A DNA stretch of 64,000 nt. Origin: an uncultured Thermotogae bacterium (GTDB lineage: Bacteria > Bipolaricaulota > Bipolaricaulia > RBG-16-55-9 > DRXL01). Positions 15,506-64,000 of this stretch are shown piece after piece. Position 1 is the first letter of the stretch; each line of letters begins with the position of its first letter. A model generated the notes under the pieces. It was given only the letters and a program-made list of their open reading frames with translations. It was not told the origin of the DNA and searched no databases. The stretch is taken from assembly GCA_964473325.1 (NCBI GenBank), contig CAYYOG010000003.1, positions 10,478 through 74,477 on the forward strand, in the 5' to 3' direction. Made by a program: the position numbers and the translations under genes.

Positions 15506-15694
15506 GTGTCAGTCAAGCGGCGAGATCTCATCAAATATCTTGAGGAGAACGGCTTCTACTTGCTGCGTGAGGGCTCAAAGCATTCGATCTACACGAACGA
15601 CATAAAAGTTGTGCCCGTCAAACGTAAAAGAGAGTTGGATCGGATCACAGCAAACGAAATCTGTAAACAAGCTGGCCTTAAACCCAAGTTTTGA
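15506..15694 (+). CDS. hicA: HicA-family mRNA interferase toxin
   Basis: 62 aa; RDLIKYLEENGFYLLREGSKHSIY…VVPVKRKRELDRITANEICKQAGL is typical HicA/YcfA. GTG start 1 nt after the hicB stop. Confidence 0.65.
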   Translation: MSVKRRDLIKYLEENGFYLLREGSKHSIYTNDIKVVPVKRKRELDRITANEICKQAGLKPKF

Positions 15695-15705
15695 TTGAGA
15701 GGGAT

Positions 15706-16812: not shown

Positions 16813-16817
16813 ATTCT

Positions 16818-42970: not shown

Positions 42971-43081
42971 TTTGTTCTTTGACGAACCGGGCGCTATCGG
43001 ATAGAATATTCTTTGGCGATGGAGTCCGCCGTCAACCGTCCGGGCACGTCGGACTGATGACTCCTACCTAAGACTCTTCAT

Positions 43082-44281
43082 GTGGATAAGGGGTCGGTTG
43101 ATGTGCAAGACCTATATGTCGGGACGGTGCTGGCGGGCTTGATCTTTCTCTCTAGTATTCTCTCTGTCGAGTTAGGGCTTTCGGCCGCGATCATCGAGAT
43201 CGCGTTCGGCGTGCTCGCTGGGAACTTCTTGGGCGTCACGGCTCTCCCCTGGGTCGCTTATATGGCGAGCCTGGGCGGGATTCTCTTGACGTTTCTGGCA
43301 GGAGCTGAAGTCGATCTCGACGTGATGCGGGCCAAGTTCAAAGAGAGTCTTCTTATTGGGGGCATCTCGTTCTTGGCACCCTTCCTCGGCACGATGCTCA
43401 TCTGTCACTATCTGTTGGGCTGGGAGTGGAAGGCCGCGCAGATCGCCGGCGTCGCTCTCTCGACCACATCGCTTGCTGTCGTCTACGCCGTGCTCGTCGA
43501 GACCGGACTGACCCACACCTCTGTAGGAAAACTGATCATGGCCGCGACCTTTGTGACCGACTTTGGCACCGCAGCAGCCTTAGCACTCGTGCTCTTAGAG
43601 TTCAATCTTAATACGCTCTGGTTCGTGCTGATCTCTCTTATAACTATTCTGCTTGCGCCCCGGATCGCGCCACGGCTCTTTGCTCGCTATGGGGATCGGG
43701 TCATCGAGCCGGAGATAAAATTTCTCTTTTTGCTCTTAGTGATTTTGATGTACTTTGCCAAGCTGGGGCTGAGCCACGCGATCCTGCCCGCGTTCATGCT
43801 GGGGCTGGTGATGTCGCGGCTCTTCCAAAAGAACATCCGGCTCCAGCGCAAGCTGCGCGTCGTGGGCTTTGCGTTCATCACGCCGATCTTCTTCCTAAGC
43901 GGGGGCACGAAGATCTCGCTGTCGCTCTTATGGTCCAGCGCGGCGCTCTTTCTCATTCTGTTCGCGGTGAAGCAGATCGCTAAGATCGTCGGGGTGTACC
44001 CTCTGGCGCGGCACTATCTGCCCAAAGAAGCGATGTACACGACGCTGCTGATGAGCACCGGGCTGACGATGGGGACGCTCTCGTCCGTGGCGGGGCTGGA
44101 GGCAAGTTTGATTGATCAATTGCAATTCTCGGTTCTCGTTGCGGTCGTAGTGGCCAGCGCCATCGTGCCGACGTTCATCGCCCAGAGATTCTTCCATCCC
44201 CATCACGCGTTAGTAGAACTTCATCATAAAGAAGAAGAGTCTTCCCAGCCGGCGCTGGTCGAAGAGACGGCTCAACAGTAA
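43082..44281 (+). CDS. Cation:proton antiporter (Na+/H+ exchanger family)
   Basis: ~11 TM helices with CPA-family pattern (…LGGILLTFLAGAEVDL…). GTG start. Confidence 0.8.
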   Translation: MDKGSVDVQDLYVGTVLAGLIFLSSILSVELGLSAAIIEIAFGVLAGNFLGVTALPWVAYMASLGGILLTFLAGAEVDLDVMRAKFKESLLIGGISFLAPFLGTMLICHYLLGWEWKAAQIAGVALSTTSLAVVYAVLVETGLTHTSVGKLIMAATFVTDFGTAAALALVLLEFNLNTLWFVLISLITILLAPRIAPRLFARYGDRVIEPEIKFLFLLLVILMYFAKLGLSHAILPAFMLGLVMSRLFQKNIRLQRKLRVVGFAFITPIFFLSGGTKISLSLLWSSAALFLILFAVKQIAKIVGVYPLARHYLPKEAMYTTLLMSTGLTMGTLSSVAGLEASLIDQLQFSVLVAVVVASAIVPTFIAQRFFHPHHALVELHHKEEESSQPALVEETAQQ

Positions 44282-48276: not shown

Positions 48277-49458
48277 ATGCGTCTAGTTATTAGTCTTGCA
48301 CTTGGGCTGTTGCTCGGTGTGAGTGCGACGGCGGCGCAGACGGGAGAGACTCCCGTAGTGCGGGCCGTCTTCTTCTGGATGAGGACGTGCCCTCACTGCC
48401 ATGAGGTCATCACGAATGTCTTGCCGCCCTTGCAGGAGAAATATGGCGCTCAGCTGGATATTCTGTTCATCGAAATTGAAACTAGACAAGACTTTGAGCG
48501 CCTCTACGCTATAGGACGAGAGTTCGGGATTCCTCGCGGGGATATCGGGGTACCGTTCCTGGTCATTGGCGACCAGGTACTCATTGGATCACTACAGATC
48601 CCTGCGGAGCTGCCCCACCTAATAGAAAAATATCTTGCAGCTGGTGGGGTGGACTTCCCGCGAGTCCCAGCTCTTGCGGATATCTTACCAGCTCCGAAGC
48701 CTCCTGAACCCCAGGAGAGTTCTCCCGAACCGCAACAGAACGAAGAGATGGCTACAGCTGAACTAGTAGAGCCATCGGCGCCGGAGCGAGAACCTCCAGC
48801 TCAGGAAGAGCAGCCTTCGCTCACCCCTCCCGATGTGCAAGTTCCGGAGCTTTCAGAGACGCTGTCTCCTAAAGAGGGGTTCTCCCGCGGGTTTGAGCTA
48901 GCTATCGCCGTCTTGATTGGCATGATACTTGCCGTGATATACGTTTTCATACAGATAATACGCGTCATGCAAGGAGCCCCTGTAAGGTCGTCCTCACGAT
49001 GGCGCGATGGTGCTTTGATAGTGTTATCTGTGCTGGGCATGGCCATAGCAGCGTACTTAGCCTATGTGGAGACTCAAGCCGTAGCGGCCTTCTGCGGCCC
49101 TGTGGGGGACTGCAATACCGTGCAGAGCAGCCCGTACGCGAAATTATTCGGTGTGCTCCCTGTGGGCGTCCTCGGTGTTATTGGGTATATTGCTATTCTT
49201 GTGGTCTGGTTTTGGGGACGGTGGGGTTCAGGGAAGTTCTCGGCCTATGCGCCGCTGTTCGTCTTAGCCATGACGCTCTTTGGTGTGCTCTTCTCGATCT
49301 ATCTCACGTATTTGGAGCCGTTTGTTATCGGGGCTGTCTGTATCTGGTGCGTGAGTTCAGCGATCATCATGACTTTGCTAATGCTCCTCAGTCTTCGTCC
49401 GGCATTGCGCGTCATCCGAGAGCACAGCGATGCTGCTCAAGGAATTTCTCGCAATTGA
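48277..49458 (+). CDS. Thioredoxin-like domain fused N-terminal to a vitamin K epoxide reductase (VKOR) domain
   Basis: Signal peptide; Trx-like CPHC motif (aa 38-41); Pro/Glu-rich linker; 4-5 TM helices carrying VKOR CGPVGDC and C-terminal CIWC motifs. Confidence 0.7.
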
Positions 49459-49751: not shown

Positions 49752-51221
49752 ATGCACGGGGCATTTCGTATTACTCTGTTTGGGCTCTTAGGCATCTTAG
49801 TGGCAGCGTGGACTGCCTCTACACCACTCACCCCTGCTTCGGCTTTGGTGCGCGATCATGCCCGAATTGCTACCTTCGATTGGATTGATGCCAACGAGGA
49901 ACATCTCATTGATTCGCAAGGGCGCCTCGTCATTCTTCGTGGTTTCGTCACAACTCCTCATGGCCGTGGTGTGAGATACGATTATACAATAGACGATTAT
50001 CGTCGGATGCGCGCCATGGGTGCTAACTATCAGTGCATTCGTCTCACAATGGGCGCGCTCGGAGCATGGATAGGACGGCAACCTAACCCAGGGTATATGG
50101 CGCAGATCGATTCAATGGTCGCGTTTGCCAAGCAAGTGGGAATGTATTCTTCATTCAAGCTGACTACATACGATCTGCCGGATTTTGAGGAGACAGGCTG
50201 GAGTGCGCTGTGGGAGAACAAAAGAGGCGAACAAGAAGCAATCATCAACGGATGGAAAGTGCTGTGGGAGCGGTACAAGGATGAGCCTGCTGTCGTCGGG
50301 TACGATCTGCTGAACGAACCACATGCGGGAATACTCCCCCTGAGCGATGAAGAGCTAGCTACGCGCTTTCTGATCCCGTTCTATCAAAAAATGATCGACG
50401 CCATGCAGAAAATAGATGGCCGACACCTGGCGTTCTTTCAGCCGATTGCGCCACCGCCACGGACAGGCTCACTCTCGTTCGAGGGAGCGCGCATTCATCG
50501 CGCCCGCATCGTCTATGCACCGCACTTTTACCCTCCTGTTCGGATGACTCCAGCCAGTGCCAACAGCTCGCTGGAGGAGTATGAGACGATGATCCAGGGT
50601 TTTCTCGCTGAAGCGCGTTTCCAACGCGCTCCGCTGTTGATTGGCGAGTACGGGATGCCCTGGCCAACATCACGTGACGGGGATGCATTCTGGGAAGCCC
50701 TAGCCCAGCGGTTTGAACAAGCCGCAAATGATGTTCTTGATCGGTATGGCTTGTCTGCTAGTCGCCCTCATTATGCCGATGACCGAGCTGGTGGCATCAC
50801 CGTTGACGGCAGCTTTCTGACGTGGGCTCTCATTCGCGGGACAAGCGGCCTAAGTGGTCCAGAGCGCGCCTTTCTCACCGACGTGATCGCGCGACCATAC
50901 CCGGCGCGCCTGGCAGGAAATCTGGAGACGTTTGGGTTCAATCGAGTGTATCATCAGTTCACATTGAAATACGTTCCTATCGCCAGACAAGGGGCTACGG
51001 AAGTGATTATTCCGCGGGCCCGCGTCTTTCCGAATGGATTCACAATCACTCACAGTGCGGGCATTACTCTTGCTCTCGATACGACGCAACCGTCAGGCTT
51101 GCGTGTCGTGAGCAACACCGGGCGTATCAACGCCAACGCATTCTCTTGGAACGAATCCTCTCAAACACTGACTGTGCAAGAATGGTTAACCGGGGCGAGC
51201 GTCACGCTACAGATTCGTTGA
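49752..51221 (+). CDS. Secreted glycoside hydrolase family 5 (cellulase-type)
   Basis: Signal peptide; GH5 catalytic motifs LLNEPH (acid/base in NEP) and LIGEYGMPW (nucleophile Glu). Confidence 0.75.
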   Translation: MHGAFRITLFGLLGILVAAWTASTPLTPASALVRDHARIATFDWIDANEEHLIDSQGRLVILRGFVTTPHGRGVRYDYTIDDYRRMRAMGANYQCIRLTMGALGAWIGRQPNPGYMAQIDSMVAFAKQVGMYSSFKLTTYDLPDFEETGWSALWENKRGEQEAIINGWKVLWERYKDEPAVVGYDLLNEPHAGILPLSDEELATRFLIPFYQKMIDAMQKIDGRHLAFFQPIAPPPRTGSLSFEGARIHRARIVYAPHFYPPVRMTPASANSSLEEYETMIQGFLAEARFQRAPLLIGEYGMPWPTSRDGDAFWEALAQRFEQAANDVLDRYGLSASRPHYADDRAGGITVDGSFLTWALIRGTSGLSGPERAFLTDVIARPYPARLAGNLETFGFNRVYHQFTLKYVPIARQGATEVIIPRARVFPNGFTITHSAGITLALDTTQPSGLRVVSNTGRINANAFSWNESSQTLTVQEWLTGASVTLQIR

Positions 51222-51304: not shown

Positions 51305-52144
51305 ATGGCTTATACTGCTGGCATGACCATGAGTCGGCATGGCTTGCTCTCGATTGGTGAATTCGCTCAGGCCTCGCTCCTCTCTTTGAAAGCTCTTAGG
51401 CTGTATGATCAGCTTCAGCTTCTAGCTCCAGCTTATGTCGACCCGGCGTCGAACTACCGTTACTATCGCGCGGATCAACTACCTACGGCGCGGCTCATCC
51501 GTTTGATGCGTCAGATGGAGATGCCCCTGGCTGTCATTCGCCGGGTGCTCTCGAGCGACCCAACGGAGGCTGCAAGACTCGTTCATAGCCACGTCGAGGT
51601 GTTCCAAGCCAAGGCAAAGCAGGTGTGCCAGACCGCAGATACTCTACTGCTCTATCTCAAAAAGGAGGCCATAATGGCATTTGCAGTGGAAATCCAGAAG
51701 ACCCCCAAACAGCTCGTGCTCAGCATCACCAAGCGTGTATACCTACACGAACTCAGCAGTTTCATCAGCAGGAGTGTAAAGATGCTGGAGGCGCATGCGG
51801 CAAAGCATGGGTGCGCCATAAGTGGGCCGCCCTTTGGAATCTATCACGGAGCGGTCAACCAGAGTGAGAACGGCCCTGTAGAAGTCTGTCTGCCGATCAC
51901 TGGCTCATCTCTTCTAGGAACGGCAGGGATCGCCGTGAAGGAGTTGTCTAGTGCCAAGCTCGCGTGTGTGACTGTTCGCGGACAGGAGTGCGCGTTTCCA
52001 GCTATCTTGAAGGCGTATGATGCCGCATGCGACTGGATTGTGCGCAACGGCTATGAGCCTGATGGCCCACCCTGGGAGATATGGGTTGGCCCTGACGAAC
52101 AGGGCCCGATGGTAATTGCCTGGCCATTTCGCGAAAAGAAGTAA
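51305..52144 (+). CDS. MerR-family transcriptional regulator with a C-terminal GyrI-like effector-binding domain
   Basis: N-terminal MerR HTH (LLSIGEFAQASLLSLKALRLYDQLQLL) plus GyrI-like C-terminus. Confidence 0.7.
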   Translation: MAYTAGMTMSRHGLLSIGEFAQASLLSLKALRLYDQLQLLAPAYVDPASNYRYYRADQLPTARLIRLMRQMEMPLAVIRRVLSSDPTEAARLVHSHVEVFQAKAKQVCQTADTLLLYLKKEAIMAFAVEIQKTPKQLVLSITKRVYLHELSSFISRSVKMLEAHAAKHGCAISGPPFGIYHGAVNQSENGPVEVCLPITGSSLLGTAGIAVKELSSAKLACVTVRGQECAFPAILKAYDAACDWIVRNGYEPDGPPWEIWVGPDEQGPMVIAWPFREKK

Positions 52145-52229: not shown

Positions 52230-52490
52230 TCATCGATCGTTTGGTATCCTAAGTTGCTCCAGCTCGCCTATCTCTCTAAGATACTCGAAGGTCTTCTGGG
52301 CTTCGGCTTCGTCAAGCTTACTGATAGCAAAGCCGACGTGCACAATCACGTAGTCACCGACTTGGGCTTCGGGTACGTACGCCAGATTGACTTCCTTGAT
52401 GATGCCCCCGAAGCTCACCTTGCCTGTGCGCAGGATTGGGTCATCGTTCTCGCTGATGCTAATGATCTTGCCAGGAACAGCAAGACACAT
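52230..52490 (-). CDS. hypC: [NiFe]-hydrogenase maturation protein HypC
   Basis: Starts MCLAVPGKII (the HypC MCL[AG]IP signature). AAGGGGG SD before ATG 52490. Confidence 0.85.
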   Translation of the reverse strand: MCLAVPGKIISISENDDPILRTGKVSFGGIIKEVNLAYVPEAQVGDYVIVHVGFAISKLDEAEAQKTFEYLREIGELEQLRIPNDR

Positions 52491-52495
52491 TGTTC

Positions 52496-54823
52496 TCACC
52501 CCTTACAGTGTGACGCGGCCACGATCTGTCCCAGTGCGATCCCGCCGTCGTTAGGCGGAACCCGTTGATGCCAGTAGACGCGAAAGCCCTCTGCGCGCAG
52601 CCGCGCGGCCGCTCGCTCAGTCAGATATTTATTCTGAAAGCATCCCCCGGTCAGCACAACTCGTCCTTCTCCGACACGCCGCGCCACAGCGATGATCATC
52701 TCTACCAAAGTATTGTGAAACTTCGCGGCTATCTTACCAACTGAAACGCCGTCGCGCACATCTCTGATAATGCTGAGGAGCATCGGTTCCCAGTCGAGCA
52801 CCTCGTGAGAGAGAGCGAACTCATAACTCTCGTCTGTCTCCATCCCGTGTAGGGCAAACTCGAGCTCCATCGCGGCTTGGCCCTCAAAGCGACTGATTTG
52901 TCGAAGCCCGACTAAAGAAGCAGCAGCGTCGAAGAACCGCCCAGCGCTCGATGTTGTGGGGCTATTTAGATTCTTTTGCAGCATTGTGAGCAAGGGCTTC
53001 AGCTCGTGCTCTGGGAAGCTCTGAACTGGGGCGAGATCGGCGCACTCGCGGGCCAGCGCGTCGCCGAAAAGCTCGTAGAGCACGCCGAGCGCTGCGCGTC
53101 GTGGCTCCTTGATCGCGTGCTCGCCCCCGGGGAGACGAAATGTCCGTAGATGGGCAACTCGTCTGAACGACTCTCGCGTAGCTAAGAGAAATTCTCCACC
53201 CCAGATTGTGCCGTCGAGCCCGTAGCCCGTCCCGTCCCACGAGACCCCCAAGACCGAGCCGTCCAGCTCGTTCTCCGCCATGCACGCCAACACATGGGCA
53301 TAATGATGCTGGACTCCAACTTTGGGAAGATCGCGTTGCTGCGCGTACTTTGTCGAAAGATACTCCGGGTGCAGATCATGGGCGATCACCGACGGACGGG
53401 CTTCGTAGAGGAGTTCAAAATCGCGAATGACTCTCCCAAACGCGCTGAACGCTTCGGCGGTCTCTAAGTCTCCGATGTGCTGGCTGATGAAGACGTTGGA
53501 GCTGACCGAGAGCGCCATGGTGTTCTTGAGATGTGCGCCGACGGCGAGGACGGTTCTGGGTTCAGAGCTCGTAGTTTCCAGTGTGATAGGCAGCGGCGCG
53601 TACCCGCGGGCGCGGCGCAACACCAGCTCCCGTCCCGCGACTATACGTACGATTGAGTCGTCGACATGGCGCGCGATAGGGCGATTGTGCACCAGAAAGA
53701 GATCAGCGATTTTATTAAGCTTTTGTAGTGCCTCGCGCTCGTCGGTGCAGATGGGCTCGTCGGAGAGATTGCCGCTGGTAGCAACGATGGGGAAGCCGAG
53801 CTCAGCCATCAACAAGTGATGGAGCGGCGTGTAGGGCAACATGATACCGAGATAGGGATTGCGCGGGGCAACGGAGGGACCAGGCTCCGCCTGGTCCATA
53901 CATCTTCGCCAGCCAGAGGCTGGCGAAGGCGTACGGTCCAGACGAAGTCTGGGCAGCAGCACAATCGGCGCCTCTGGGGACGTTAACAAGCGTTCTTCTA
54001 GTTCGGAGACTTCGCAATGGGCTGTGATAAGTTCTAGCGACGGATACATGAGCGCAAACGGCTTCTCTTCGCGGTGCTTGCGCTTGCGTAACTCTTGCAC
54101 GGCGTCGTCGTTGCGGGCATCGCAGATCAAGTGAAACCCGCCCAAGCCCTTGACGGCAACGATCTGTCCATTGCGAATCGCTTCGGCAGCTTTATACAAT
54201 GCGTCGTCATGTTGGGCGAGCACCCTGCCCTGGCGATCCCATAGTTCCAAGTGTGGCCCGCACACAGGGCACGCATTGGGCTGCGCATGAAAGCGCCGAT
54301 TCGAAGGGTCTTCGTATTCGGCTTGGCAGTCGGGGCACATTCTGAAGATCTTCATGGTCGTGTTCGGGCGATCATAGGGCAGGGCTTCAATAATAGAGAA
54401 GCGCGGGCCGCAGTTTGTACAGTTTGTAAACGGATAGCGATAGCGTCGGTCGTTGGGGTCAAAGATCTCGCGCAGGCAGTCGGGGCAGGTCGCAATATCT
54501 GGGAGAATAAACGCTGTCTTCTGGCCTGACTCATCGCTATGGCGAATTTCAAATGCTGTGTAGCCGACAGGGTCGAGCCACACGGACTCCAAGCTCTGAA
54601 TAAACGCGCGCGGGGGCTTGTCGCGCTCGAGTCTGCGCAAGAATTCTTCGAGTTGCTCTTTGGGCCCTTCAGTTTCGATGAAGACGCCCTGAGCAGAATT
54701 GAGCACCCAGCCCGTCAGTTTTAGCTCTGTGGCAAGACGATAGACGAACGGGCGGAAGCCCACCCCCTGCACTGCCCCGTGGATCGTGACCTTAAGGCGT
54801 ACCGCGTGCTCTCTCATGGCCAC
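52496..54823 (-). CDS. hypF: Carbamoyltransferase HypF (contains a ~25-aa in-frame insert encoded by the palindromic element at 53880-53952)
   Basis: Acylphosphatase domain (VQGVGFRPFV), two CxxC…CxxC zinc fingers, YrdC-like and Kae1-like domains (…GGCFQN…). The insert LRLDRTPSPASGWRRCMDQAEPG falls between the YrdC-like and Kae1-like domains. Confidence 0.9.
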   Translation of the reverse strand: MAMREHAVRLKVTIHGAVQGVGFRPFVYRLATELKLTGWVLNSAQGVFIETEGPKEQLEEFLRRLERDKPPRAFIQSLESVWLDPVGYTAFEIRHSDESGQKTAFILPDIATCPDCLREIFDPNDRRYRYPFTNCTNCGPRFSIIEALPYDRPNTTMKIFRMCPDCQAEYEDPSNRRFHAQPNACPVCGPHLELWDRQGRVLAQHDDALYKAAEAIRNGQIVAVKGLGGFHLICDARNDDAVQELRKRKHREEKPFALMYPSLELITAHCEVSELEERLLTSPEAPIVLLPRLRLDRTPSPASGWRRCMDQAEPGPSVAPRNPYLGIMLPYTPLHHLLMAELGFPIVATSGNLSDEPICTDEREALQKLNKIADLFLVHNRPIARHVDDSIVRIVAGRELVLRRARGYAPLPITLETTSSEPRTVLAVGAHLKNTMALSVSSNVFISQHIGDLETAEAFSAFGRVIRDFELLYEARPSVIAHDLHPEYLSTKYAQQRDLPKVGVQHHYAHVLACMAENELDGSVLGVSWDGTGYGLDGTIWGGEFLLATRESFRRVAHLRTFRLPGGEHAIKEPRRAALGVLYELFGDALARECADLAPVQSFPEHELKPLLTMLQKNLNSPTTSSAGRFFDAAASLVGLRQISRFEGQAAMELEFALHGMETDESYEFALSHEVLDWEPMLLSIIRDVRDGVSVGKIAAKFHNTLVEMIIAVARRVGEGRVVLTGGCFQNKYLTERAAARLRAEGFRVYWHQRVPPNDGGIALGQIVAASHCKG
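53880..53952. repeat. Second copy of the palindromic element, in-frame within hypF
   Basis: ccaggctccgcctggtccatacatcttcgccagccagaggctggcgaaggcgtacggtccagacgaagtctgg; matches rnpB 42561-42646 apart from internal indels. Confidence 0.7.
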
Positions 54824-55003
54824 CCTAGTATATGCTCTGCGTATATGCTCTGCACGTGTGGACTAGTACCCCTTCATGCCAGACTTTTCTACATATCGAT
54901 TCATAAAGTTAGTTTCCCTTGGGAGAATTTTGATTTTCGTTGGCTCTTGAGCTGATTTTAATCATAGTCGGGGCTTGGGAGATTCGCCTAAAATACAACA
55001 GCT

Positions 55004-55750
55004 ATGAAAATTGCGATCTCCGGCAAGGGCGGTGTGGGCAAGACGACCCTCTGTGCCCTTATAGCTCGAGAAGCTGTCTCGCGAGGGAAGCGTGTTTTCG
55101 CTGTAGACGCCGACCCAAACCCAACATTAGCTCTAGTCCTCGGCTTCCCTGAGGACATCACTCCCTTGGTAGAGCTGCGAGAGCTCATGGAAGAGCGCAT
55201 GGGATCGCTCGAGGGCTTTTTGCGGCTCAACCCCAAAGTCGACGACATCCCGGAGCGCTTCGCTATTGAGAAAGATGGGATCAAGCTTGTAGTCATGGGA
55301 CCAATTCGTCAAGGCGGGGGCGGCTGTGCCTGCCCGCAAAATACGTTTCTCAAGAGTCTTTTGCAGCATCTTGTGCTCGAACGCGATGAGCTCATTCTCT
55401 TAGACTTTGAAGCGGGGCTAGAGCCCCTGGGGCGCGCTACAGCGCAGGGAGTCGACGCGTTGCTCATTGTCGTTGAGCCTGACGGTGCAAGCGTCGTCAC
55501 GGCGCGGCGCATTCATAGTCTTGCTCAACAGATTGGGGTCAGAAGAATCTTTGCTGTAGCGAATAAGATCCGCGAGCCTGGGGAACTGCGCGCTATCCAA
55601 GAGAACGTAGGGATAGCAGTGATCGGTGCTCTGCCCTATAGCGAGAGCCTGCGCATCGCTGGCCCCACTTCTGTGAGCGATGCTGCAATCCGTCGTCAAG
55701 TTCAGGCAATCTTAGAAAGCGTTCAGCTGCCTTCTTCCGTGGGAAGCTGA
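55004..55750 (+). CDS. cooC: CooC/AcsF-type P-loop ATPase (nickel-insertion accessory protein for CODH/ACS)
   Basis: ISGKGGVGKTT Walker A; GGGCACP CxC metal-binding motif typical of CooC. Confidence 0.8.
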   Translation: MKIAISGKGGVGKTTLCALIAREAVSRGKRVFAVDADPNPTLALVLGFPEDITPLVELRELMEERMGSLEGFLRLNPKVDDIPERFAIEKDGIKLVVMGPIRQGGGGCACPQNTFLKSLLQHLVLERDELILLDFEAGLEPLGRATAQGVDALLIVVEPDGASVVTARRIHSLAQQIGVRRIFAVANKIREPGELRAIQENVGIAVIGALPYSESLRIAGPTSVSDAAIRRQVQAILESVQLPSSVGS

Positions 55751-55771
55751 AGAGACAAAAAGGAGGCGCCA

Positions 55772-56293
55772 ATGGAGCGGCTCTTCTGTGATCCGCGCCG
55801 CTGTGTCGGCTGTCGGGCGTGCGAGATCGCGTGTGCGGTCGAGCACACGCCCTCAAAGGACCTGTTCGTCTCGGTGCTCCATGGGGAGCTAGGGCCTCCG
55901 CGACGCCGTGTCCAGGCCGTCGGTGCGGAGCCTTATCGTGTGGCGATTGGGGGTGTAGCGCTTTCGCTGGGGTGTCATCATTGCGATCCGGCCCCTTGTG
56001 TTGACGCGTGCATTACTGGGGCGATGCGTAAAGAGAATGACCAGACCGTCTGCGATCTTGAGAAGTGCGTCGGCTGCTGGATGTGCGTGATGAGCTGCCC
56101 CTACGGCGCAATCACGCCGAGAGTGAAAGCCCTCAAGTGCGATCTCTGCCCCGATCGCCAAGAGAGGGCGGGGCGCGCTCGCTATGCGTGCGTCGAATCG
56201 TGCCCCACCGATGCGCTCTTCGCCGGGACGTTTGAAGAATTCGAAAAAGTGCTCGCACAGCCCATAGAACGGCCTTGGGAGGTGGTGCGATGA
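55772..56293 (+). CDS. 4Fe-4S poly-ferredoxin (CooF/HycB-like)
   Basis: Four CxxCxxC…CP-type cluster motifs (CVGCRACEIAC, CHHCDPAPCVDAC, CVGCWMCVMSCP, CDLCPDR…CVESCP). Confidence 0.8.
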   Translation: MERLFCDPRRCVGCRACEIACAVEHTPSKDLFVSVLHGELGPPRRRVQAVGAEPYRVAIGGVALSLGCHHCDPAPCVDACITGAMRKENDQTVCDLEKCVGCWMCVMSCPYGAITPRVKALKCDLCPDRQERAGRARYACVESCPTDALFAGTFEEFEKVLAQPIERPWEVVR

Positions 56294-57633
56294 GTCCGAA
56301 AGCGAAGCAGTCGAGATACGTCATCATTGGAGCATCCGCGGCGGGGGTCACGGCCGCGGAGACCCTGCGTCGCTATGACGCCAGTGCAGAGATCGTAATG
56401 GTCTCTGATGAAAAACTTATCTATTCTCGTCCGTTGCTCTCGTACTATCTGGCGGGCAAGCTGGACGAAGATCAGTTGCTCTATCGCCCGCGTGATTTCT
56501 TTGAGAGATACAAAATCAAAGCGCTCTTCACGCGGGCTGTGGGACTCGATACTGAAAAGAGCCAAGTCCATCTGCAAGATGGCACAACAGTCGCTTATGA
56601 TAAGTTGCTCTTGGCGACGGGGGCGTCGCCGCGCTTTCCTGCCCTTGAGGGCCTTAAAGAGCGATCCGGGGTCTTCGGATTGCGCAAGCTCGAGGAGGAC
56701 GCCAAAGCGATCTTAAGCTGGCTGCCCAAGGCCAAGCGAGCTGTAGTGCTCGGCGGGGGCTTGGTCGGCTTGAAAGCTGCTGAGGCCCTTCAGGGACGCG
56801 GGCTCGCCGTCACGGTGCTCATAGACTCACCCCATGCGCTCTCGCAGATGCTCGATGAGAGCTCAGCGCGAATTTTTGAGAGAATCTTTGAGCAGAACGG
56901 CGTCACGATTCGGACAAAGGCGAAGCCCGTCGCGGTGCTGGGCAAACAACAAGTAGAAGGCGTTCAGCTCGCTTCGGGCGAGGTCTTCGCGTGCGATCTC
57001 GTCGTCGTGGGCAAGGGCGTAGATCCTAACCTCGAGCTTCTTAAAGACACGAAGCTTCGTAAAGATTACGGGGTATTCGTAGACGACTATCTGGGCACGA
57101 GCATAGAGAATATTTACGCAGCTGGGGACGTCGCCCAAGCCCGCGATGTCGTTCGCGGCGAGCCGTGGATTAATGCGCTCTGGCCCTGCGCCGTGGAGCA
57201 AGGGCGCATCGCGGCGCTCAATATGCTGGGCCAAGAGACGGTCTATCGTGGCTCGATGCGCATGAACTCGGTGCAGTTCTTTGGGGTTCCGGTGATCTCG
57301 GCTGGACTGGCTGTGCTCACACCGGGCCCCCTGGGCGGTCGTTCTGGCGAGCACGACGAGACGCTAGAGTTTCAGCCTGCCCCGGGAATCTACCGAAAGA
57401 TCTTTCTCAAGGACGACACGATCGTGGGGTTTGTGCTCGTGGGGGATGTGCCCATCGAAGCCGCAGGGGTATTGCGTATCTTGATGGAGCGGCGCGTCAA
57501 CATCGCTCCCATAAAAGAAGAACTTCTGGAGCTGGGGCCAGATCTGGGGCGAGTGCTGCCCTTGATTGTCGAAAACAAAGAGCGCTTTGCCGAGCGCGAA
57601 TTCCAAGAATTAGTACACACGGTGGGGGTGTAA
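56290..57633 (+). CDS. FAD-dependent pyridine nucleotide-disulfide oxidoreductase (CODH-associated FNOR-like)
   Basis: GxGxxG dinucleotide motifs (VIIGASAAG; VVLGGGLVG). ATGA overlap with the ferredoxin gene; GGAGGTGG SD. Confidence 0.8.
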   Translation: MSPKAKQSRYVIIGASAAGVTAAETLRRYDASAEIVMVSDEKLIYSRPLLSYYLAGKLDEDQLLYRPRDFFERYKIKALFTRAVGLDTEKSQVHLQDGTTVAYDKLLLATGASPRFPALEGLKERSGVFGLRKLEEDAKAILSWLPKAKRAVVLGGGLVGLKAAEALQGRGLAVTVLIDSPHALSQMLDESSARIFERIFEQNGVTIRTKAKPVAVLGKQQVEGVQLASGEVFACDLVVVGKGVDPNLELLKDTKLRKDYGVFVDDYLGTSIENIYAAGDVAQARDVVRGEPWINALWPCAVEQGRIAALNMLGQETVYRGSMRMNSVQFFGVPVISAGLAVLTPGPLGGRSGEHDETLEFQPAPGIYRKIFLKDDTIVGFVLVGDVPIEAAGVLRILMERRVNIAPIKEELLELGPDLGRVLPLIVENKERFAEREFQELVHTVGV

Positions 57634-57637
57634 AGCT

Positions 57638-59860
57638 ATGTCTAAGATTATCGCGTCCGCCGCGATCCGTGGCGCGCACAAATACGTCGCCGAGGCTGAG
57701 CAGAAGCTCAAGGAAGCTCTAGAGACCTATAAGCCCGAAAAGAGAGTGGGCTTTCCCAACACGGCCTATCATCTACCGTTAATCTTAGCTCTGCTGGGTT
57801 TGAAAGTCGAGACGCTCAAAGATTGTCACGAAGCCTTACAGCACGCCAAGGGGCTTCTTCCCCCGATCCCGCAAGATCAGCTCTGGCTGCCCTATTTGGG
57901 CGATGCTCTCGATGCTGGGATCGCGACACTGATCGCCGAAGAGATCATCGAGGCGCTGAGATACTTAGACCCAAGTTATAAGCCGGAGCCGCCCTGGCTG
58001 GGCTTCACCGACGACGCGATCTTGCGCACCCAAGGGATCAAGCTCGTAGATGGTCGTATGCCGGGGTTCGCTGCGTGCGTCGGGGCGCTGCCGACCAACA
58101 AAGACGCCGTCGAATTAGCTCGTGCCCTGCAAGAGAGAAATATTCTCATCTTTATCGCTGGCGACTCCAACGGGCGCTCCATGGCCGAGCAACTCCAAGA
58201 AGAAGATATCGAGATGGGCTGGGACACGTATATTGTGCCGTATGGGAAGCACGTGGGGGCAGCGGTCTATGCGCTCAATTTCGCCACCCGCGCCGCAATG
58301 ACCTTTGGTGGGATCAAGCCCGGCAGCTTCGATGCGGCGCGAAAGATTCTGCTCTATAACAAAGAGCGCGTCTTCGCGTTTGTTCTAGCTCTGGGAGCTG
58401 ATCCCGGCGTCAACGGCACGGGACAGCTCTTAACTGACGAAAAGTACGCGACGGCCGCGGGAGCGATCAACTTCGGCTTCCCCGTGATCGCGGACGTCCC
58501 GATCCCGCAGATTCTGCCCAGGGGCATCTGTACCTATGAGCACGTCGTCTCCGGGATCTCGTTGGATAAAATCATTCACAAAGCGATTGAGGTGCGCGGG
58601 CTCAAGATTAAGCTCTCGAAGATCCCCATCCCCGTGCCCTATGGGGCGAGCTTCGAGGGCGAGCGCGTGCGCAAAGAGAATCTCTACGTCGAGTTCGGCG
58701 GCAAATATTCAACGGCGTTTGAGCTGCTGCGCGCCAAGCCGATGGACGAAGTCGAAGACGGCAAGATCGAGCTGATCGGCCCAGATATAGACCAAGCCAA
58801 AGAGGGCAAGGCCATGCCCCTGGGCGTGATCGTCGATGTCGCTGGACGCAACTTAAAGACGGACTTCGAGCCCGTCTTGGAGAGAAGAATCCATCACTTT
58901 ATTAGCTGCATCAACGGCGTGATGCACATCGGGCAGCGCGACATCCCCTGGGTGCGCATCAGTAAAGAGGCTTACGACAAGGGCTTTCGCTTGAAGCACT
59001 ACGGAGAAGTTTTAATCGCCAAATTCAAAGAAGATTTTGGAGCATTAGTCGACAAAGTCCAAGTGAAGATCATCACGGATCAAGCGCAAGTCGACGCATT
59101 GATCAAAGAAGCCAGGGAGATCTATCGCCAGCGTGACGAGCGCGTCATGGGCATGAAGGACGAAGATGTAGACAAGTTCTATAGCTGCATTCTCTGCCAG
59201 AGCTATGCGCCCAACCACGTCTGCATCGTGACGCCACAGCGCTTGGGCCTCTGCGGCGCGTATACCTGGCTTGACTGCGGGGCGTCGTACGAGATGGACC
59301 CGCACGGCCCTAATAAACCTGTGCCCAAGGGTGCCTGTCTTGACCCCGTCTTAGGCGAATGGCAAGGGGTCAACGAGTATGTCCGCGTCGCCTCCAACGG
59401 CAACTTAGAGAGGGTCTCGATGTACTCAATCATGCAGAACCCCCAGACGAGCTGCGGGTGCTTCGAGTGCCTCGTGGCGGTGCTGCCGGAGTGCAACGGG
59501 GTGATGGTCGCCAGCCGCGAATATCAAGGGGAGACGCCCATCGGCATGACGTTCTCCACGATGGCCGGCGAAGTCGGCGGCGGGGTGCAGACGCCGGGCT
59601 TCTTGGGCGTGGGCAAGCTCTACCTCACCAGCGAAAAGTTTATCAGTGCTGAGGGCGGCATCAAGAGACTCGTCTGGATGCCGAGCGAGCTCAAAGAAGA
59701 GATCAAGGAGAGACTGCAGAAGCGCTTGGAAGAGATCGGGATGCCGGAGCTTTTTGACAAGATCGCAACTGAAAAAGACGCCACGACCAGCGAAGAGCTT
59801 ATGGAGTTCTTGCAGCGCGTGGGGCACCCAGTTTTGGAGATGGAGCCGATTGTGCAATAG
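57638..59860 (+). CDS. acsB: Acetyl-CoA synthase catalytic subunit (ACS, AcsB/CdhC; A-cluster subunit)
   Basis: A-cluster ligand motif SCGCFEC plus CIVTPQRLGLCGAYTWLDC [4Fe-4S] motif; length and overall pattern typical of AcsB. Confidence 0.9.
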   Translation: MSKIIASAAIRGAHKYVAEAEQKLKEALETYKPEKRVGFPNTAYHLPLILALLGLKVETLKDCHEALQHAKGLLPPIPQDQLWLPYLGDALDAGIATLIAEEIIEALRYLDPSYKPEPPWLGFTDDAILRTQGIKLVDGRMPGFAACVGALPTNKDAVELARALQERNILIFIAGDSNGRSMAEQLQEEDIEMGWDTYIVPYGKHVGAAVYALNFATRAAMTFGGIKPGSFDAARKILLYNKERVFAFVLALGADPGVNGTGQLLTDEKYATAAGAINFGFPVIADVPIPQILPRGICTYEHVVSGISLDKIIHKAIEVRGLKIKLSKIPIPVPYGASFEGERVRKENLYVEFGGKYSTAFELLRAKPMDEVEDGKIELIGPDIDQAKEGKAMPLGVIVDVAGRNLKTDFEPVLERRIHHFISCINGVMHIGQRDIPWVRISKEAYDKGFRLKHYGEVLIAKFKEDFGALVDKVQVKIITDQAQVDALIKEAREIYRQRDERVMGMKDEDVDKFYSCILCQSYAPNHVCIVTPQRLGLCGAYTWLDCGASYEMDPHGPNKPVPKGACLDPVLGEWQGVNEYVRVASNGNLERVSMYSIMQNPQTSCGCFECLVAVLPECNGVMVASREYQGETPIGMTFSTMAGEVGGGVQTPGFLGVGKLYLTSEKFISAEGGIKRLVWMPSELKEEIKERLQKRLEEIGMPELFDKIATEKDATTSEELMEFLQRVGHPVLEMEPIVQ

Positions 59861-59873
59861 GAGCTGATTCGCT

Positions 59874-61217
59874 ATGGCCAAGCTCACGGGAATCGAGATC
59901 TATAAGCACTTGCCCAAGACCAACTGCGGGGACTGTAACTTCCCAACGTGTATGGCGTTCGCGATGCAGGTCGCGGCGAAAAAAGTCGGGCTGGAGCAGT
60001 GCCCGCACGTCTCGCCAGAGGCGAAGGCTGCTCTATCAGAAGCCCAAGCCCCGCCGATGCGCACCGTGACTGTGGGCGCAGGAGATCGCGTGCTCAAGCT
60101 CGGCGGCGAAACGGTGCTCTTCCGTCATGAAGAGAAGTTCCATCACCCCACGGTGATCGCTATTCGTGTGCGGGACGATCTTTCAGAGGGTGAGCTGGCC
60201 CAGCGCATCGAGAAGATCAATCAATTACAGTTTGTGCGTGTGGGGCAGCTCATCGGCGTCAACGCCATCGCTGTGGAGCAGACTACTCCCGATACGAATA
60301 AATTCGCGCAAGCCGTTCGGCTTGCTGCGGAGAAGACATCACTGGCGCTCATCTTAGCGAGTGCAGACCCTCAGGCGCTTCGAGCGGCTCTAGAAATCTG
60401 TGCCGAGCGCCGCCCGCTGCTCTGCGCCGCGACGAGAGAGAACTTCAAAGAGTTTGCAGGGCTCGCGAAGGAATCCAAGTGCTCCCTTGCCGTGAAGGCG
60501 GCGACGCTCGAGGAGCTTGCCGAGCTTACCCAACAGATCAAAGCTCTCGGTGTTGAAGATCTCGTGCTCCAGCCGGAGATCTCCGGGTTGGCTGACGGCT
60601 TGGCGAAGCTGACGCAGCTGCGTCGGCTCGCGCTGGAGAAGAATTTCCGAGCCGTGGGCTACCCCGTGATGGTTGCCCTGCGCGGAAGTGACCCGCAGAT
60701 CGAGACGGCATACGCAGCGATGTTTATATGTAAGTACGCGAGCATGATCGTGATAGACGGCGCGGAACGTGCGCAGCTGCTGCCCATTCTCACAGTGCGG
60801 CAAAATATCTTTACTGACCCGCAAGTCCCCAACGCTGTCGAAGCGAAGCTCTACAAAGTCGGCGAGCCCACGCCGCAATCGCCAGTGCTCGTCACGACGA
60901 ACTTCGCGCTCACGTACTTTACTGTTGAGGGTGAGGTCGAGAACAGTCGCGTGCCAGCATATATCTCAGTAGTGGACACAGGAGGATTGGGCGTGCTGAA
61001 CGCCTACGCTGACGACAAGCTCACAGCAGAAGCGATCGTCAAAGCGGTGAAGAGTTACGGCGTTATGGACCAAGTCGCGCATAAGAAGTTGATCATTCCG
61101 GGTTTGGTAGCGGTGCTCAAGGGCGAGATCGAAGATTTAGGTGGTTGGGAGGTCTTAGTCGGCCCGGAGGAAGCCGCGGGGATTCCCGCGTATCTGAAGA
61201 ACGAATGGAAAGCATAA
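59874..61217 (+). CDS. acsC: Corrinoid iron-sulfur protein large subunit (AcsC/CdhE)
   Basis: N-terminal CGDCNFPTC…C [4Fe-4S] motif followed by TIM-barrel and corrinoid-binding domains. Confidence 0.85.
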   Translation: MAKLTGIEIYKHLPKTNCGDCNFPTCMAFAMQVAAKKVGLEQCPHVSPEAKAALSEAQAPPMRTVTVGAGDRVLKLGGETVLFRHEEKFHHPTVIAIRVRDDLSEGELAQRIEKINQLQFVRVGQLIGVNAIAVEQTTPDTNKFAQAVRLAAEKTSLALILASADPQALRAALEICAERRPLLCAATRENFKEFAGLAKESKCSLAVKAATLEELAELTQQIKALGVEDLVLQPEISGLADGLAKLTQLRRLALEKNFRAVGYPVMVALRGSDPQIETAYAAMFICKYASMIVIDGAERAQLLPILTVRQNIFTDPQVPNAVEAKLYKVGEPTPQSPVLVTTNFALTYFTVEGEVENSRVPAYISVVDTGGLGVLNAYADDKLTAEAIVKAVKSYGVMDQVAHKKLIIPGLVAVLKGEIEDLGGWEVLVGPEEAAGIPAYLKNEWKA

Positions 61218-61220
61218 GCG

Positions 61221-63152
61221 ATGCCCACAGTGCGATTTCATCCTGATGAAGTGAGCGTCGAAGTCGAGCGCGGCGTCACCCTCCAAGCCGCCGCGAAGGC
61301 CGTCGGCGTCGAGCTGGCGAGTATCTGTGGGGGCGACGGCATCTGCGGCCGCTGTCGCGTCATCGTCAAGAACGGTAACATCGAATCTGCGCCGACGACG
61401 CTCCTCAATCGCGATGAGATCCAGAAGGGCTACGTGCTTGCCTGCCAAACCAAAGTCTTAGGAGACGTCGAAGTTGAAGTGCCCCTGGAGACCCGTGCCG
61501 AAGAGGGCCAAATCTTAATAGACATAGACGCGCAGCGCTTCCGCGCGCTCTACCAAGAAGAGAGGGTCTCTTTCCGCCATGAGCCCCTGGTGCAAAAACT
61601 CTATCTGGAGCTGCCTCCCCCGTCGCTGCACGACAACTTGGCCGACCAGCAACGACTCTACCGGGAGATCCGACGACATCGGGATTACCCAATCATGCAG
61701 ACGGGGCTGAAGATCTTGCAAATGCACCCCAGGATCTTGCGCCAGAGCCATTGGAAGGTGACGGCCGCGCTGGGGCTGCGTGGCGGCACTGTTGAAGTCC
61801 TGCAGCTTGAAGGCGGAGACACGTCTGCTCGCAATTACGGGTTCGCCGTAGATGTTGGGACGTCAACGGTCGTGGCCCATCTGGTGGACTTGAACACGGG
61901 TCGCACGATAGACGCCGAGGCCATGTACAATTCTCAGCGGGCCTACGGCGAGGAAGTCACCCGAAGAATTCTGTACGCTGAGCGCGGCGGCCTGGAACAG
62001 CTTCAGAAGACCATCGTTAACGATATTAATAATTTGATCACGGCGCTGGTGGAGCGCAACAAGATCGCGCTGCACGACTGCTTAGCTCTGGTGTGTGCGG
62101 GCAACACGACGATGATGCACTTGTTGCTTGGGCTTGATCCAAGCTCGATCCGGCGCGATCCGTATGTCTCGTGCTCGACCGCGCCCCCGCCGGTGCGCGC
62201 TGCTGAAGTTGGGATTCAGATCAATCCCCGGGGGTTGCTCTACTGTGTCCCAGCTATCGGCGGCTGGGTCGGCGGCGACGTCACCGCGGGCATTTTAGCC
62301 ACAGGGCTCTATGAGTCCGACAAGACGGTGATGCTCATAGACGTAGGCACCAACGGGGAGATCGTCATCGGCCGACGTGAGGATGGCTTCTGCTGGATGG
62401 TGACGTGCTCGGCCTCGGCCGGGCCGGCATTTGAGGGCTCTGGCGTCAAGTGCGGCATGAAAGCGAGCCGCGGCGCTATCGAGAGAGTGCAGATCTCCTC
62501 CGACGGCAACGTCTTGTATAAGACCGTAGGGAATGTCAAGCCCAAGGGGATCTGCGGGTCTGGGCTGATAGACTTAGTCGCGGGGCTCTTAGAAGCTGGG
62601 TTTATAGATCGCTCTGGAAGACTTATCCCCGAAGCGAGCCCGCGCATCCGCGAGCGCGACGGGATATTAGAGTTTGTCGTCGTCCCTGCGCAGCGCTCCG
62701 CGACAGAGAAAGATATAGTCATCACCCAAGCTGATATCGAGAATCTGTTGCGGGCCAAGGCGGCGATCTACGCCGGGACGTTGATTCTACTCAAATCGCT
62801 CAATCTCGACATCACCAATATAGACAGGGTCTTTCTCGCCGGGGGTTTTGGGAACTATCTTGATCGAGAGAAAGCGATTATGATTGGACTGATCCCAGAT
62901 TTGCCGTTAGAGAAGATTCGTTTTGTGGGCAACACGTCTATTATTGGGGCGAAGATGGTGCTGCTGTCGCGAGAAGCCTGGGAGAAGTGCGAAGAGATCG
63001 TGCAGAGCGCGACGTATTACGATTTGATAAGCTTCCCGCATTACTATGAAGAGTTTCTCGCGGCGAAGTTCTTGCCCCACACGGAGCTGGAGCGGTTCCC
63101 GTCGGTGCAAGAGCGCTTGCGGGTGAAGGAAGCGATATGGCATTCACGATAG
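61221..63152 (+). CDS. Reductive activator of corrinoid Fe-S protein (RACo/AcsV-like: 2Fe-2S ferredoxin domain + ASKHA ATPase domain)
   Basis: N-terminal plant-type ferredoxin motif CGGDGICGRCRV…C; C-terminal ASKHA/DUF4445-like domain; ~640 aa as expected for RACo. Confidence 0.75.
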   Translation: MPTVRFHPDEVSVEVERGVTLQAAAKAVGVELASICGGDGICGRCRVIVKNGNIESAPTTLLNRDEIQKGYVLACQTKVLGDVEVEVPLETRAEEGQILIDIDAQRFRALYQEERVSFRHEPLVQKLYLELPPPSLHDNLADQQRLYREIRRHRDYPIMQTGLKILQMHPRILRQSHWKVTAALGLRGGTVEVLQLEGGDTSARNYGFAVDVGTSTVVAHLVDLNTGRTIDAEAMYNSQRAYGEEVTRRILYAERGGLEQLQKTIVNDINNLITALVERNKIALHDCLALVCAGNTTMMHLLLGLDPSSIRRDPYVSCSTAPPPVRAAEVGIQINPRGLLYCVPAIGGWVGGDVTAGILATGLYESDKTVMLIDVGTNGEIVIGRREDGFCWMVTCSASAGPAFEGSGVKCGMKASRGAIERVQISSDGNVLYKTVGNVKPKGICGSGLIDLVAGLLEAGFIDRSGRLIPEASPRIRERDGILEFVVVPAQRSATEKDIVITQADIENLLRAKAAIYAGTLILLKSLNLDITNIDRVFLAGGFGNYLDREKAIMIGLIPDLPLEKIRFVGNTSIIGAKMVLLSREAWEKCEEIVQSATYYDLISFPHYYEEFLAAKFLPHTELERFPSVQERLRVKEAIWHSR

Positions 63153-63922
63153 CCGTTGCTGGCAAGGGCGGCGTAGGCAAGACAACCGTTGCAGGGCTGA
63201 TCGTGCGCGCGCTCGTCGAGCGCCGCGAAGGGCCGGTGCTCGCTATTGATGCCGACCCGAATACGAATTTTCACCAAGTCTTGGGCCTAAAACTCGAGCA
63301 GACCATCGGCGAGCTGCGCGAAGAGACGCTCAAGAAGATTAAAGACTTGCCGCCGGGGATTGCCAAAGATCAGTATCTCGAATATGGGTTGCAGCAATGT
63401 CTTGTGGAGGGCAACGGTCTTGATCTTTTAGCGATGGGCCGTGGTGAAGGCCCCTTCTGCTATTGCGCTGTCAATCACGTCTTGCGACGCTATATAGATC
63501 TGCTTAGCAAAAACTATAAGTATGTCGTTTTGGACAACGAAGCGGGCTTGGAGCACCTATCGCGGCGCACGACCCAAGACGTTGACGTGCTCTTGGTCAT
63601 CAGCGATGCCAATCCCATTGCACTGCAAGCTGCAGCTCGAATTAACAGATTGGCTGATGAGCTGCAATTGCGCATCCGCACGAGATTTTTAGCTCTGAAC
63701 AATGTGAGCGATAGTAGGCGAGCTCGGCTAGGGGATAAGTCTTTTCAGGAGAGGCTCGCGCAGACGGGGCTTGCGCTCATCGGGGAGATCCCAACAGACG
63801 AAGCGCTTTGGGATCTCAGTCTCGAAGGTAAGCCGCTCACTGAGCTGACTCCAGCTTCCCCAGCCAAGCGCGCCGTACAGGAGGTCTTAGAGAAGATTTT
63901 GTGCCACGGAGGAGGATCGTAA
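63137..63922 (+). CDS. acsF: Second CooC/AcsF-type nickel-insertion ATPase
   Basis: VAGKGGVGKTT Walker A; GEGPFCYCA CxC motif. Confidence 0.8.
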   Translation: MAFTIAVAGKGGVGKTTVAGLIVRALVERREGPVLAIDADPNTNFHQVLGLKLEQTIGELREETLKKIKDLPPGIAKDQYLEYGLQQCLVEGNGLDLLAMGRGEGPFCYCAVNHVLRRYIDLLSKNYKYVVLDNEAGLEHLSRRTTQDVDVLLVISDANPIALQAAARINRLADELQLRIRTRFLALNNVSDSRRARLGDKSFQERLAQTGLALIGEIPTDEALWDLSLEGKPLTELTPASPAKRAVQEVLEKILCHGGGS

Positions 63923-63925
63923 AGA

Positions 63926-64000
63926 TGCCCGTCGCTATTCCCGATGTCAAGAAGACCTGGCCGAATGCGATCAATGTTGTGACGCTCGGCGCAACGAAGG
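63926..64000 (+). CDS. acsD: Corrinoid iron-sulfur protein small subunit (AcsD/CdhD), N-terminal fragment (continues beyond the window)
   Basis: MPVAIPDVKKTWPNAINVVTLGATK resembles the AcsD N-terminus; operon position after acsF. Confidence 0.5.

Follow-up and report, generated by a model that had tools for sequence, protein, structure and literature searches.

In Moorella thermoacetica and Carboxydothermus hydrogenoformans, the acs operon for the carbonyl branch of the Wood-Ljungdahl pathway has the order cooC-acsA-acsB-acsC-RACo-acsF-acsD-acsE, with the carbon monoxide dehydrogenase (CODH) gene acsA ahead of the acetyl-CoA synthase (ACS) gene acsB. The ACS of Dehalococcoides mccartyi is described as CODH-less. 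For Candidatus Acetothermum autotrophicum (OP1), the 2012 report describes an operon-like acsA-D and acsF cluster together with a complete folate-type Wood-Ljungdahl pathway (PMC3267732), and this pathway is regarded as a hallmark of one Bipolaricaulota group (PMC9992828). Text searches for an explicit Bipolaricaulota acs gene order gave pathway-level descriptions and no order. Here, we analysed a 64,000-nucleotide stretch of contig CAYYOG010000003.1 (the window, taken at its full length), in which positions 55004-64000 of the + strand carry genes for CooC, a CooF-like polyferredoxin, a FAD-dependent pyridine-nucleotide oxidoreductase (FNOR), AcsB, AcsC, the reductive activator RACo (AcsV), AcsF and the start of AcsD. 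The original prediction, made from the letters of the window, had noted that CODH is missing from its usual place and had proposed that it is either encoded elsewhere or dispensed with, as in Dehalococcoides.

The region very probably covers the first three-quarters, from the 5' side, of a single operon of eleven genes for the Wood-Ljungdahl carbonyl branch from Candidatus Bipolaricaulota (Acetothermia/OP1), whose CODH subunit is present and comes last, ahead of a closing DUF3786 gene. The predicted order is cooC, cooF-like, FNOR, acsB, acsC, RACo (acsV), acsF, acsD, acsE, cooS (acsA) and DUF3786, and cooS appears to be absent because the window ends inside acsD. The continuation was read from a public contig, L001 (15.2 kb; Logan assembly of SRR7473445), retrieved by exact-sequence look-up of the AcsF protein. 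The two sequences do not differ at any of the 10,864 positions that they share, which include the last base of the window, and L001 reaches 4.3 kb past the window end (Table 1). CODH is thus indeed encoded elsewhere, namely at the 3' end of the same operon.

Table 1. Genes and intergenic region of the CODH/ACS locus and the divergent hyp genes. Positions are those of the window; positions beyond its end are window coordinates extrapolated from contig L001.
Feature	Position	Strand	Description
hypD-hypE	48244-46036	-	4-8 kb away
hypC	52230-52499	-	HupF_HypC 97.5 bits
hypF	52496-54823	-	TIGR00143 857 bits; divergent from cooC
hypF/cooC divergent intergenic region	54824..55003	.	contains a block of about 60 nt that is conserved in an alignment of 8 Bipolaricaulota loci
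cooC	55004..55750	+	248 aa; CooC-type P-loop nickel-insertion ATPase; Pfam CbiA
CooF-like polyferredoxin	55772..56293	+	173 aa; Pfam Fer4_11/Fer4
FNOR, FAD-dependent pyridine-nucleotide oxidoreductase	56290..57633	+	447 aa (start ATG 56290) or 452 aa (start TTG 56275)
acsB, acetyl-CoA synthase A-cluster subunit	57638..59860	+	740 aa; full length including N-terminal domain
acsC, corrinoid iron-sulfur protein large subunit	59874..61217	+	447 aa; Pfam FeS and CdhD
RACo/acsV, ATP-dependent reductive activator of corrinoid protein	61221..63152	+	643 aa
acsF, second CooC-family ATPase	63137..63922	+	261 aa
acsD, corrinoid iron-sulfur protein small subunit	63925..64000	+	first 25 codons (76 nt) only, cut by window end
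acsD (full)	63925 to 64905 (extrapolated)	+	326 aa; NF003376 431 bits (cut-off 280)
acsE	64902-65705 (extrapolated)	+	267 aa; Pterin_bind methyltransferase in AcsE position
cooS/acsA	65721-67628 (extrapolated); L001 12585-14492	+	635 aa; Pfam Prismane
DUF3786 gene	67621-68253 (extrapolated)	+	DUF3786 167 bits

The cooS gene starts about 1.7 kb past the window edge, two genes after acsD. Its product scores 710.4 bits on TIGR01702, the model of the anaerobic CODH catalytic subunit (cut-off 478), and aligns end to end with the solved CODHs 6t7j_B (744 bits), 6ytt_B (685 bits; CODH of the Clostridium autoethanogenum CODH/ACS complex) and 1mjg_A (549 bits; M. thermoacetica CODH/ACS subunit). It keeps the motifs CGFG...CCRIC...GPC, GVCG, HGHEP, ICCT, VQC, GCNN, SGC, GACVD and SEKA, the conserved Cys/His motifs lying at residues 36-67, 255-257, 292-293, 331, 444, 473 and 515. 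We take the first two to hold the D- and B-cluster cysteines of Ni-CODHs, and HGHEP, ICCT, VQC, GCNN, SGC and GACVD to hold the C-cluster ligands, together with the lysine of SEKA. The original prediction had suggested looking at the gene immediately downstream of acsD, and had allowed that a cooS found there, or elsewhere with its own CooC, would make this a permuted operon order; that gene is acsE, the next one is cooS, and the order is a permuted one.

A CODH-less ACS of the D. mccartyi type, which would cleave acetyl-CoA or supply one-carbon units and release CO on the side, agrees with the window taken by itself. The gaps between cooC, cooF, FNOR and acsB are 21, -4 and 4 nt, so that there is no space for a cooS in the Moorella-type place, and no CODH was found among the open reading frames (ORFs) scanned with Pfam over the 64 kb (67 ORFs of at least 150 aa in the window; the scan took in every ORF from about 500 aa upwards and many shorter ones). 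To the extent of the window, the observation was right. Nevertheless, cooS lies on a contig identical to the window, it scores well above the CODH cut-off with its metal-cluster motifs conserved, the same cooS tail is found in at least 10 related genomes, and acsE is also present. A CODH-less ACS is thereby refuted, its remaining probability being negligible. The likeness to Dehalococcoides is superficial and confined to the window, where acsB, acsC, acsD and the maturases stand without cooS; unlike in Dehalococcoides, the operon here has both cooS and acsE.

Profile and structure matches placed every gene that had been named from the letters (CooC, CooF-like, FNOR, AcsB, AcsC, RACo, AcsF, AcsD and hypF) where it had been predicted. 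The AcsB protein scores 1041.6 bits on NF040764 (cut-off 800), its residues 11-738 align to M. thermoacetica ACS (1oao_C, 718 bits), and the A-cluster ligands are kept in SCILC, NHVC, GLCG and SCGCFE, which correspond to M. thermoacetica C506, C509, C518, C528 and C595-G-C597. AcsC scores 592.7 bits on NF003195 (cut-off 306), and RACo shows all four Pfam domains in order (Fer2, RACo_linker, Raco_middle, RACo_C_ter), which make up the 2Fe-2S ferredoxin, linker, middle and ASKHA ATPase domains of such activators. The best solved relative of CooC is C. hydrogenoformans CooC1 (3kje; 144.5 bits, E 4e-41), and the protein carries a GKGGVGKT P-loop (deviant Walker A) and a CACP (CXC) metal-binding motif. 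AcsF is 34% identical to this first CooC, matches 3kje with 79.3 bits, and has the same GKGGVGKT P-loop together with CYC. By analogy, CooC is the presumed maturase of the CODH C-cluster and AcsF, from its gene position, the presumed nickel maturase of the ACS A-cluster. The basis of this assignment of the two paralogues is the placement of acsF between RACo and acsD, as in Moorella.

All eleven genes from cooC to DUF3786 are tightly packed, the ten intergenic distances ranging from -16 to +21 nt, which is the packing expected of one operon and would make the locus a single transcription unit. The gene that follows DUF3786 was considered as a further Wood-Ljungdahl member and rejected; in L007 it encodes a Beta_elim_lyase protein.

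Relatives were collected by an AcsB scan with one genome per species, and the eleven operon proteins and HypF were mapped onto 60 loci. The closest AcsB relatives (89-94% identical) belong to Candidatus Bipolaricaulota/Acetothermia metagenome-assembled genomes (MAGs), a few of them labelled Fraserbacteria, which places the present organism in the phylum of Ca. Acetothermum autotrophicum. The complete CODH/ACS operon agrees with what has been published on Bipolaricaulota that have the Wood-Ljungdahl pathway. At least 10 loci repeat the order hypF(-) / cooC-cooF-FNOR-acsB-acsC-RACo-acsF-acsD-acsE-cooS-DUF3786 as far as their contigs extend; the acsE-cooS(-DUF3786) tail is the same in L002, L003, L004, L006, L007, L008, L009, L015, L032 and L059, and the head cooC-cooF-FNOR-acsB is identical in order wherever it is covered in these Bipolaricaulota loci. 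The more distant clusters L010, L012 and L013 (AcsB 73-77% identical) keep acsB...acsE-cooS and have no cooF/FNOR; in L010 and L012, cooS likewise follows acsE. In two of these Bipolaricaulota-type clusters (L010 and L013) DUF3786 sits before cooC.

In other loci, cooS is found elsewhere in the cluster. It stands directly upstream of acsB, as in Moorella, in a locus labelled Sulfomarinibacteraceae (L022), a Chloroflexia MAG (L023), Ca. Aquicultor (L031) and a Planctomycetaceae MAG (L033), with cooS 52-60% identical, and Omnitrophota and Planctomycetia loci have the order cooS-cooF-FNOR-acsB (L025, L027, L028, L030, L041). Among the loci mapped, orthologous cooS genes of other phyla (52-74% identical) always lie inside an acs cluster. 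This cooS lineage is always part of an acs cluster and only its position moves. The place of cooS in acs operons is thus fluid: before acsB, before cooF-FNOR-acsB, or after acsE.

Compared with the operon of Moorella and Carboxydothermus, the present one has the same protein set, the same acsB-acsC-RACo-acsF-acsD-acsE order and cooC at its head. The differences are that cooS comes after acsE and not between cooC and acsB, that the CooF-like and FNOR genes fill the slot before acsB, and that DUF3786 closes the operon. The original prediction had held that acsA precedes acsB in characterised operons, which applies to Moorella and Carboxydothermus but not to all such operons. In the C1-fixing cluster of C. 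autoethanogenum (AcsB 07965, AcsE 07970, AcsD 07980, AcsA 08025; PMC10230548), acsA is, as here, not upstream of acsB, and its AcsA is a close solved relative of the present CooS; the cluster differs in also holding methyl-branch genes and in its overall order. The methyl-branch families fhs, folD and metF gave no match among the window ORFs scanned.

The two genes between cooC and acsB were then considered in relation to CODH. The CooF-like protein has four [4Fe-4S]-type cysteine motifs (CxxCxxCxxxC, CxxCx4CxxxC, CxxCxxCxxxCP and CxxC...CxxxCP), and its best solved relatives are HycB4 (HDCR, 7qv7_B; 72 bits) and AorA (8c0z_C; 38 bits). The FNOR matches Pyr_redox_2 (196 bits) and Rubredoxin_C, its best solved relative being AorC (8c0z_E; 191 bits over residues 9-414). 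It is without the redox-active cysteine of the CoADR/Nox type (NADH oxidases, CoA-disulfide reductases), and an acidic residue after the second Rossmann strand of its NAD domain suggests a preference for NAD(H). PadH and PadI, the best NCBIfam relatives of the pair, are the NAD-coupling subunits of the NADH-dependent phenylglyoxylate dehydrogenase, another ferredoxin-type oxidoreductase. The FNOR is homologous to PadH but not a member of that family (NF045765, 297 bits; cut-off 475), and the same is true of the CooF-like protein and PadI (NF045766, E 5e-9; cut-off 700). All NCBIfam names tried for the pair (DmsB, AegA, HydN, PadH) scored far under their cut-offs, and neither protein is therefore given an equivalog name.

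Both proteins have counterparts in described systems. AorC is the FAD subunit by which the tungsten aldehyde oxidoreductase AorABC reduces NAD (PMC10413684, PMC12318220). In AorABC of Aromatoleum aromaticum (PDB 8c0z), AorC resembles the FNOR over its whole length and the four-cluster polyferredoxin AorA resembles the CooF-like protein; the logic is alike, a low-potential metalloenzyme wired to NAD. The similarity is modest, and the catalytic partner is a tungstopterin enzyme in AorABC and a Ni-Fe-S CODH here. Genes for CODH, CooF and FNOR are known to occur together as a unit (PMC6344411, PMC13056359). The units of C. hydrogenoformans CODH-IV, Geobacter sulfurreducens and C. ljungdahlii contain the same COG0437-type CooF and COG1251-type FNOR in a CODH directon; according to PMC6344411, biochemical work on an FNOR of this type had yet to be published in 2019. 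Unlike in those units, the pair here lies inside a full CODH/ACS operon, seven genes from cooS. A CooF-type four-cluster ferredoxin and an FNOR thus share a directon with a Ni-CODH (the cooS of L001), and the pair would most likely serve as an electron wire between the B/D clusters of CODH and NAD(H).

Several observations weigh against a complete, CODH-containing operon equipped with such a wire. The cooS gene lies outside the window and is known from an identical metagenome contig and conserved synteny, not from the window's own assembly. Consensus scans of L001 gave 3 promoter-like sites, where 5.8 would be expected, and 12 terminator-like sites, where the expectation is 13, nothing above chance in either case, so that the transcription unit is deduced from gene packing. 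RACo scores 612 bits on the AcsV "exception" model NF040756, under its cut-off of 800, and AcsE scores 257.9 bits on NF005719 (cut-off 259) and 169 bits on NF040758 (cut-off 370); the domain architecture is complete in both proteins (for AcsE, that of Pterin_bind). In addition, 6t7j_B, named "Carbon monoxide dehydrogenase" with no ACS mentioned, outscores the chains from CODH/ACS complexes in the CooS alignment, and the docking of CooS onto AcsB is therefore not proven by the alignment. As for the wire, NADH (about -320 mV) alone cannot drive the reduction of CO2 to CO (about -520 mV), so that a CooF/FNOR wire is sensible mainly for CO or carbonyl oxidation, or with extra coupling. Moreover, L020, whose AcsB is 92% identical, has cooC and then acsB directly (region 1-2439), and the pair is thus variably present within the lineage; as it is also missing from L010 and L013, it is dispensable for CODH/ACS as such.

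The score of 6t7j_B, together with the fact that stand-alone CODHs are classically accompanied by CooF and FNOR (PMC6344411), would agree with cooS encoding a monofunctional CODH, which with the CooF-like protein and FNOR would form a free-standing CO:NAD+ oxidoreductase merely co-transcribed with the acs genes, AcsB being left without a dedicated CODH partner or tunnel. Against this, every mapped orthologue of this cooS, over several phyla, belongs to an acs cluster, and four loci have it right before acsB as in Moorella; the N-terminal domain of AcsB is complete, as seen in the alignment to M. thermoacetica ACS; cooS is 15 nt from acsE and overlaps the DUF3786 gene; and the AcsA of C. autoethanogenum, a genuine ACS partner, is nearly as close. 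We consider a monofunctional CODH very unlikely and infer that CooS and AcsB would associate physically in a CODH/ACS complex.

The absence of the pair from the close relative L020 and from the more distant L010 and L013 could also mean that CooF-like and FNOR are unrelated to CODH/ACS chemistry, being a mobile redox or oxidative-stress cassette lodged between cooC and acsB. The FNOR family includes NADH oxidases, and the CODH-CooF-FNOR cluster of C. ljungdahlii responds to oxygen (PMC6344411). On the other hand, the same pair is found right upstream of acsB, there after cooS, in the five Omnitrophota and Planctomycetota loci, and this repeated association with acsB argues against an accidental neighbour. 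The FNOR, without the redox cysteine of Nox/CoADR, is closest to AorC, a ferredoxin-domain-coupled NAD reductase, and the stop/start overlap with the neighbouring gene suggests co-translation. Such a cassette is unlikely, although less so than a monofunctional CODH. The two genes are thus best seen as an accessory element: several uncultured phyla have them beside acsB, while some close relatives lack them. Going beyond an electron wire, the CooF-like protein and the AorC-like flavoprotein may be stoichiometric, NAD(H)-linked subunits of CODH/ACS with an AorABC-like architecture in this Bipolaricaulota lineage, Omnitrophota and Planctomycetota, a possibility that we put forward tentatively and regard as doubtful; by analogy with its homologues HycB and AorA, the CooF-like wire might even form filaments.

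The core chemistry of CODH/ACS is established for the family, and the motifs that support it were checked in the present sequences. In the complete operon, CooS/AcsA would interconvert CO2 and CO at its Ni-Fe-S C-cluster, and the CO would move on to the Ni-Ni-[4Fe4S] A-cluster of AcsB. AcsE would transfer the methyl group of methyl-tetrahydrofolate to the Co(I) of the AcsC/AcsD corrinoid protein, which would in turn methylate the A-cluster, and AcsB would combine methyl, CO and CoA into acetyl-CoA, or run the reverse. The re-reduction of inactive Co(II) would be carried out by RACo in an ATP-driven manner, while CooC and AcsF would deliver nickel into the C-cluster and the A-cluster, respectively. 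The CooF-like polyferredoxin and the AorC/PadH-like flavoprotein would be an accessory electron wire from the B/D clusters of CODH to NAD(H), most plausibly letting electrons from CO or carbonyl oxidation reach NAD+.

The locus had also been described as a concentrated nickel-enzyme maturation locus. This holds as far as the two CooC paralogues are present and hypF-hypC adjacent. However, the products of hypF, hypC, hypD and hypE assemble the Fe(CN)2CO moiety of [NiFe]-hydrogenase, and hypA and hypB, which insert the nickel, were not seen among the window ORFs scanned. The gene hypF is found upstream of cooC also in L003-L007, L009, L015, L017 and L032. The conserved block of the hypF/cooC intergenic region lies around 54928-54967, some 40 nt of sequence separating cooC from an imperfect palindrome in it, TGATTTTAATCA (positions 54953-54964). 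The pattern occurs once in the window. This block is a candidate promoter or operator element. Three genes on the + strand part hypF-hypC from hypD-hypE and encode a VKOR-domain protein (48277-49458), a GH5 cellulase (49752-51221) and a MerR/GyrI-like regulator (51305-52144).

Among the mapped loci, some acs clusters are interrupted. In the Bipolaricaulota relatives L015 (11819-13189), L018 and L032 (5812-7182), acsB holds an in-frame intein of 457 codons (Pfam LAGLIDADG_3 and Intein_splicing), with the junctions ...DPQTS|CVVG...LIKN|CGCFE just before the first cysteine of the Cys-Gly-Cys nickel site (M. thermoacetica C595). The equivalent site in the window, AcsB codon 606 (about 59453), is uninterrupted. 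A different in-frame insertion of about 545 codons occurs in L046 (about 150-1784), with ...FYSCIL|CVPAGEE...VVVKN|CQSYAPNHVC, and precedes the cysteine equivalent to M. thermoacetica C509, the bridge between the [4Fe-4S] cluster and nickel. Its junctions, with a Cys start and a ...KN|C end, look intein-like; the corresponding AcsB codon 520 in the window (about 59195) is again uninterrupted. The top-ranked matches of a literature text search made no mention of an intein in AcsB, which is not proof that none exists. Between acsE and cooS, L003 has genes for a PIN-domain toxin and an AF2212-like antitoxin that run against the operon (16916-17827, -), and L004, L006, L015 and L032 have similar gaps of 640-960 nt, compared with 15 nt in the strain of the window.

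Elsewhere in the window, the large ORFs identified by Pfam include rpoC, an SBP_bac_5 protein, an NFACT protein, a TPP enzyme and a lamin-tail/dockerin protein, among others. In the region 9357-16863, rpoC (1654 aa, -) stands without rpoB before it, and upstream of rpoC are found a Zn-ribbon protein, ndk, a HicB-like/HicA toxin-antitoxin pair (15259-15694, +) and dprA. An RNase P RNA was detected at 42605-42972 (193 bits), so that the 153-aa ORF at 42610-43071 is considered spurious; directly after this RNA comes a fluoride riboswitch (43006-43073, 56 bits), ahead of a Na_H_Exchanger-family gene (43082-44281). The product of the gene at 37086-39209 (707 aa) combines two lamin-tail domains with a dockerin domain of type I. 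Together with the GH5 cellulase-family gene, it provides cellulosome-like parts that are unexpected in a Bipolaricaulota genome.

The main value of this analysis is a correction: the apparent CODH-less ACS was produced by the window edge, and the CODH/ACS operon of the organism is normal and complete. The enzyme complex is a familiar one and has been published for this phylum; the gene order is permuted and the accessory pair is known from elsewhere, and nothing in it departs from known systems. If the CooF-like/FNOR pair does couple CODH/ACS to NAD(H), this would be relevant to energy metabolism in these lineages. Should the two proteins be subunits of the complex itself, the carbonyl branch would be linked directly to the NAD pool, and the redox balance of deep-branching acetogens or acetate oxidisers would not be maintained by ferredoxin alone.

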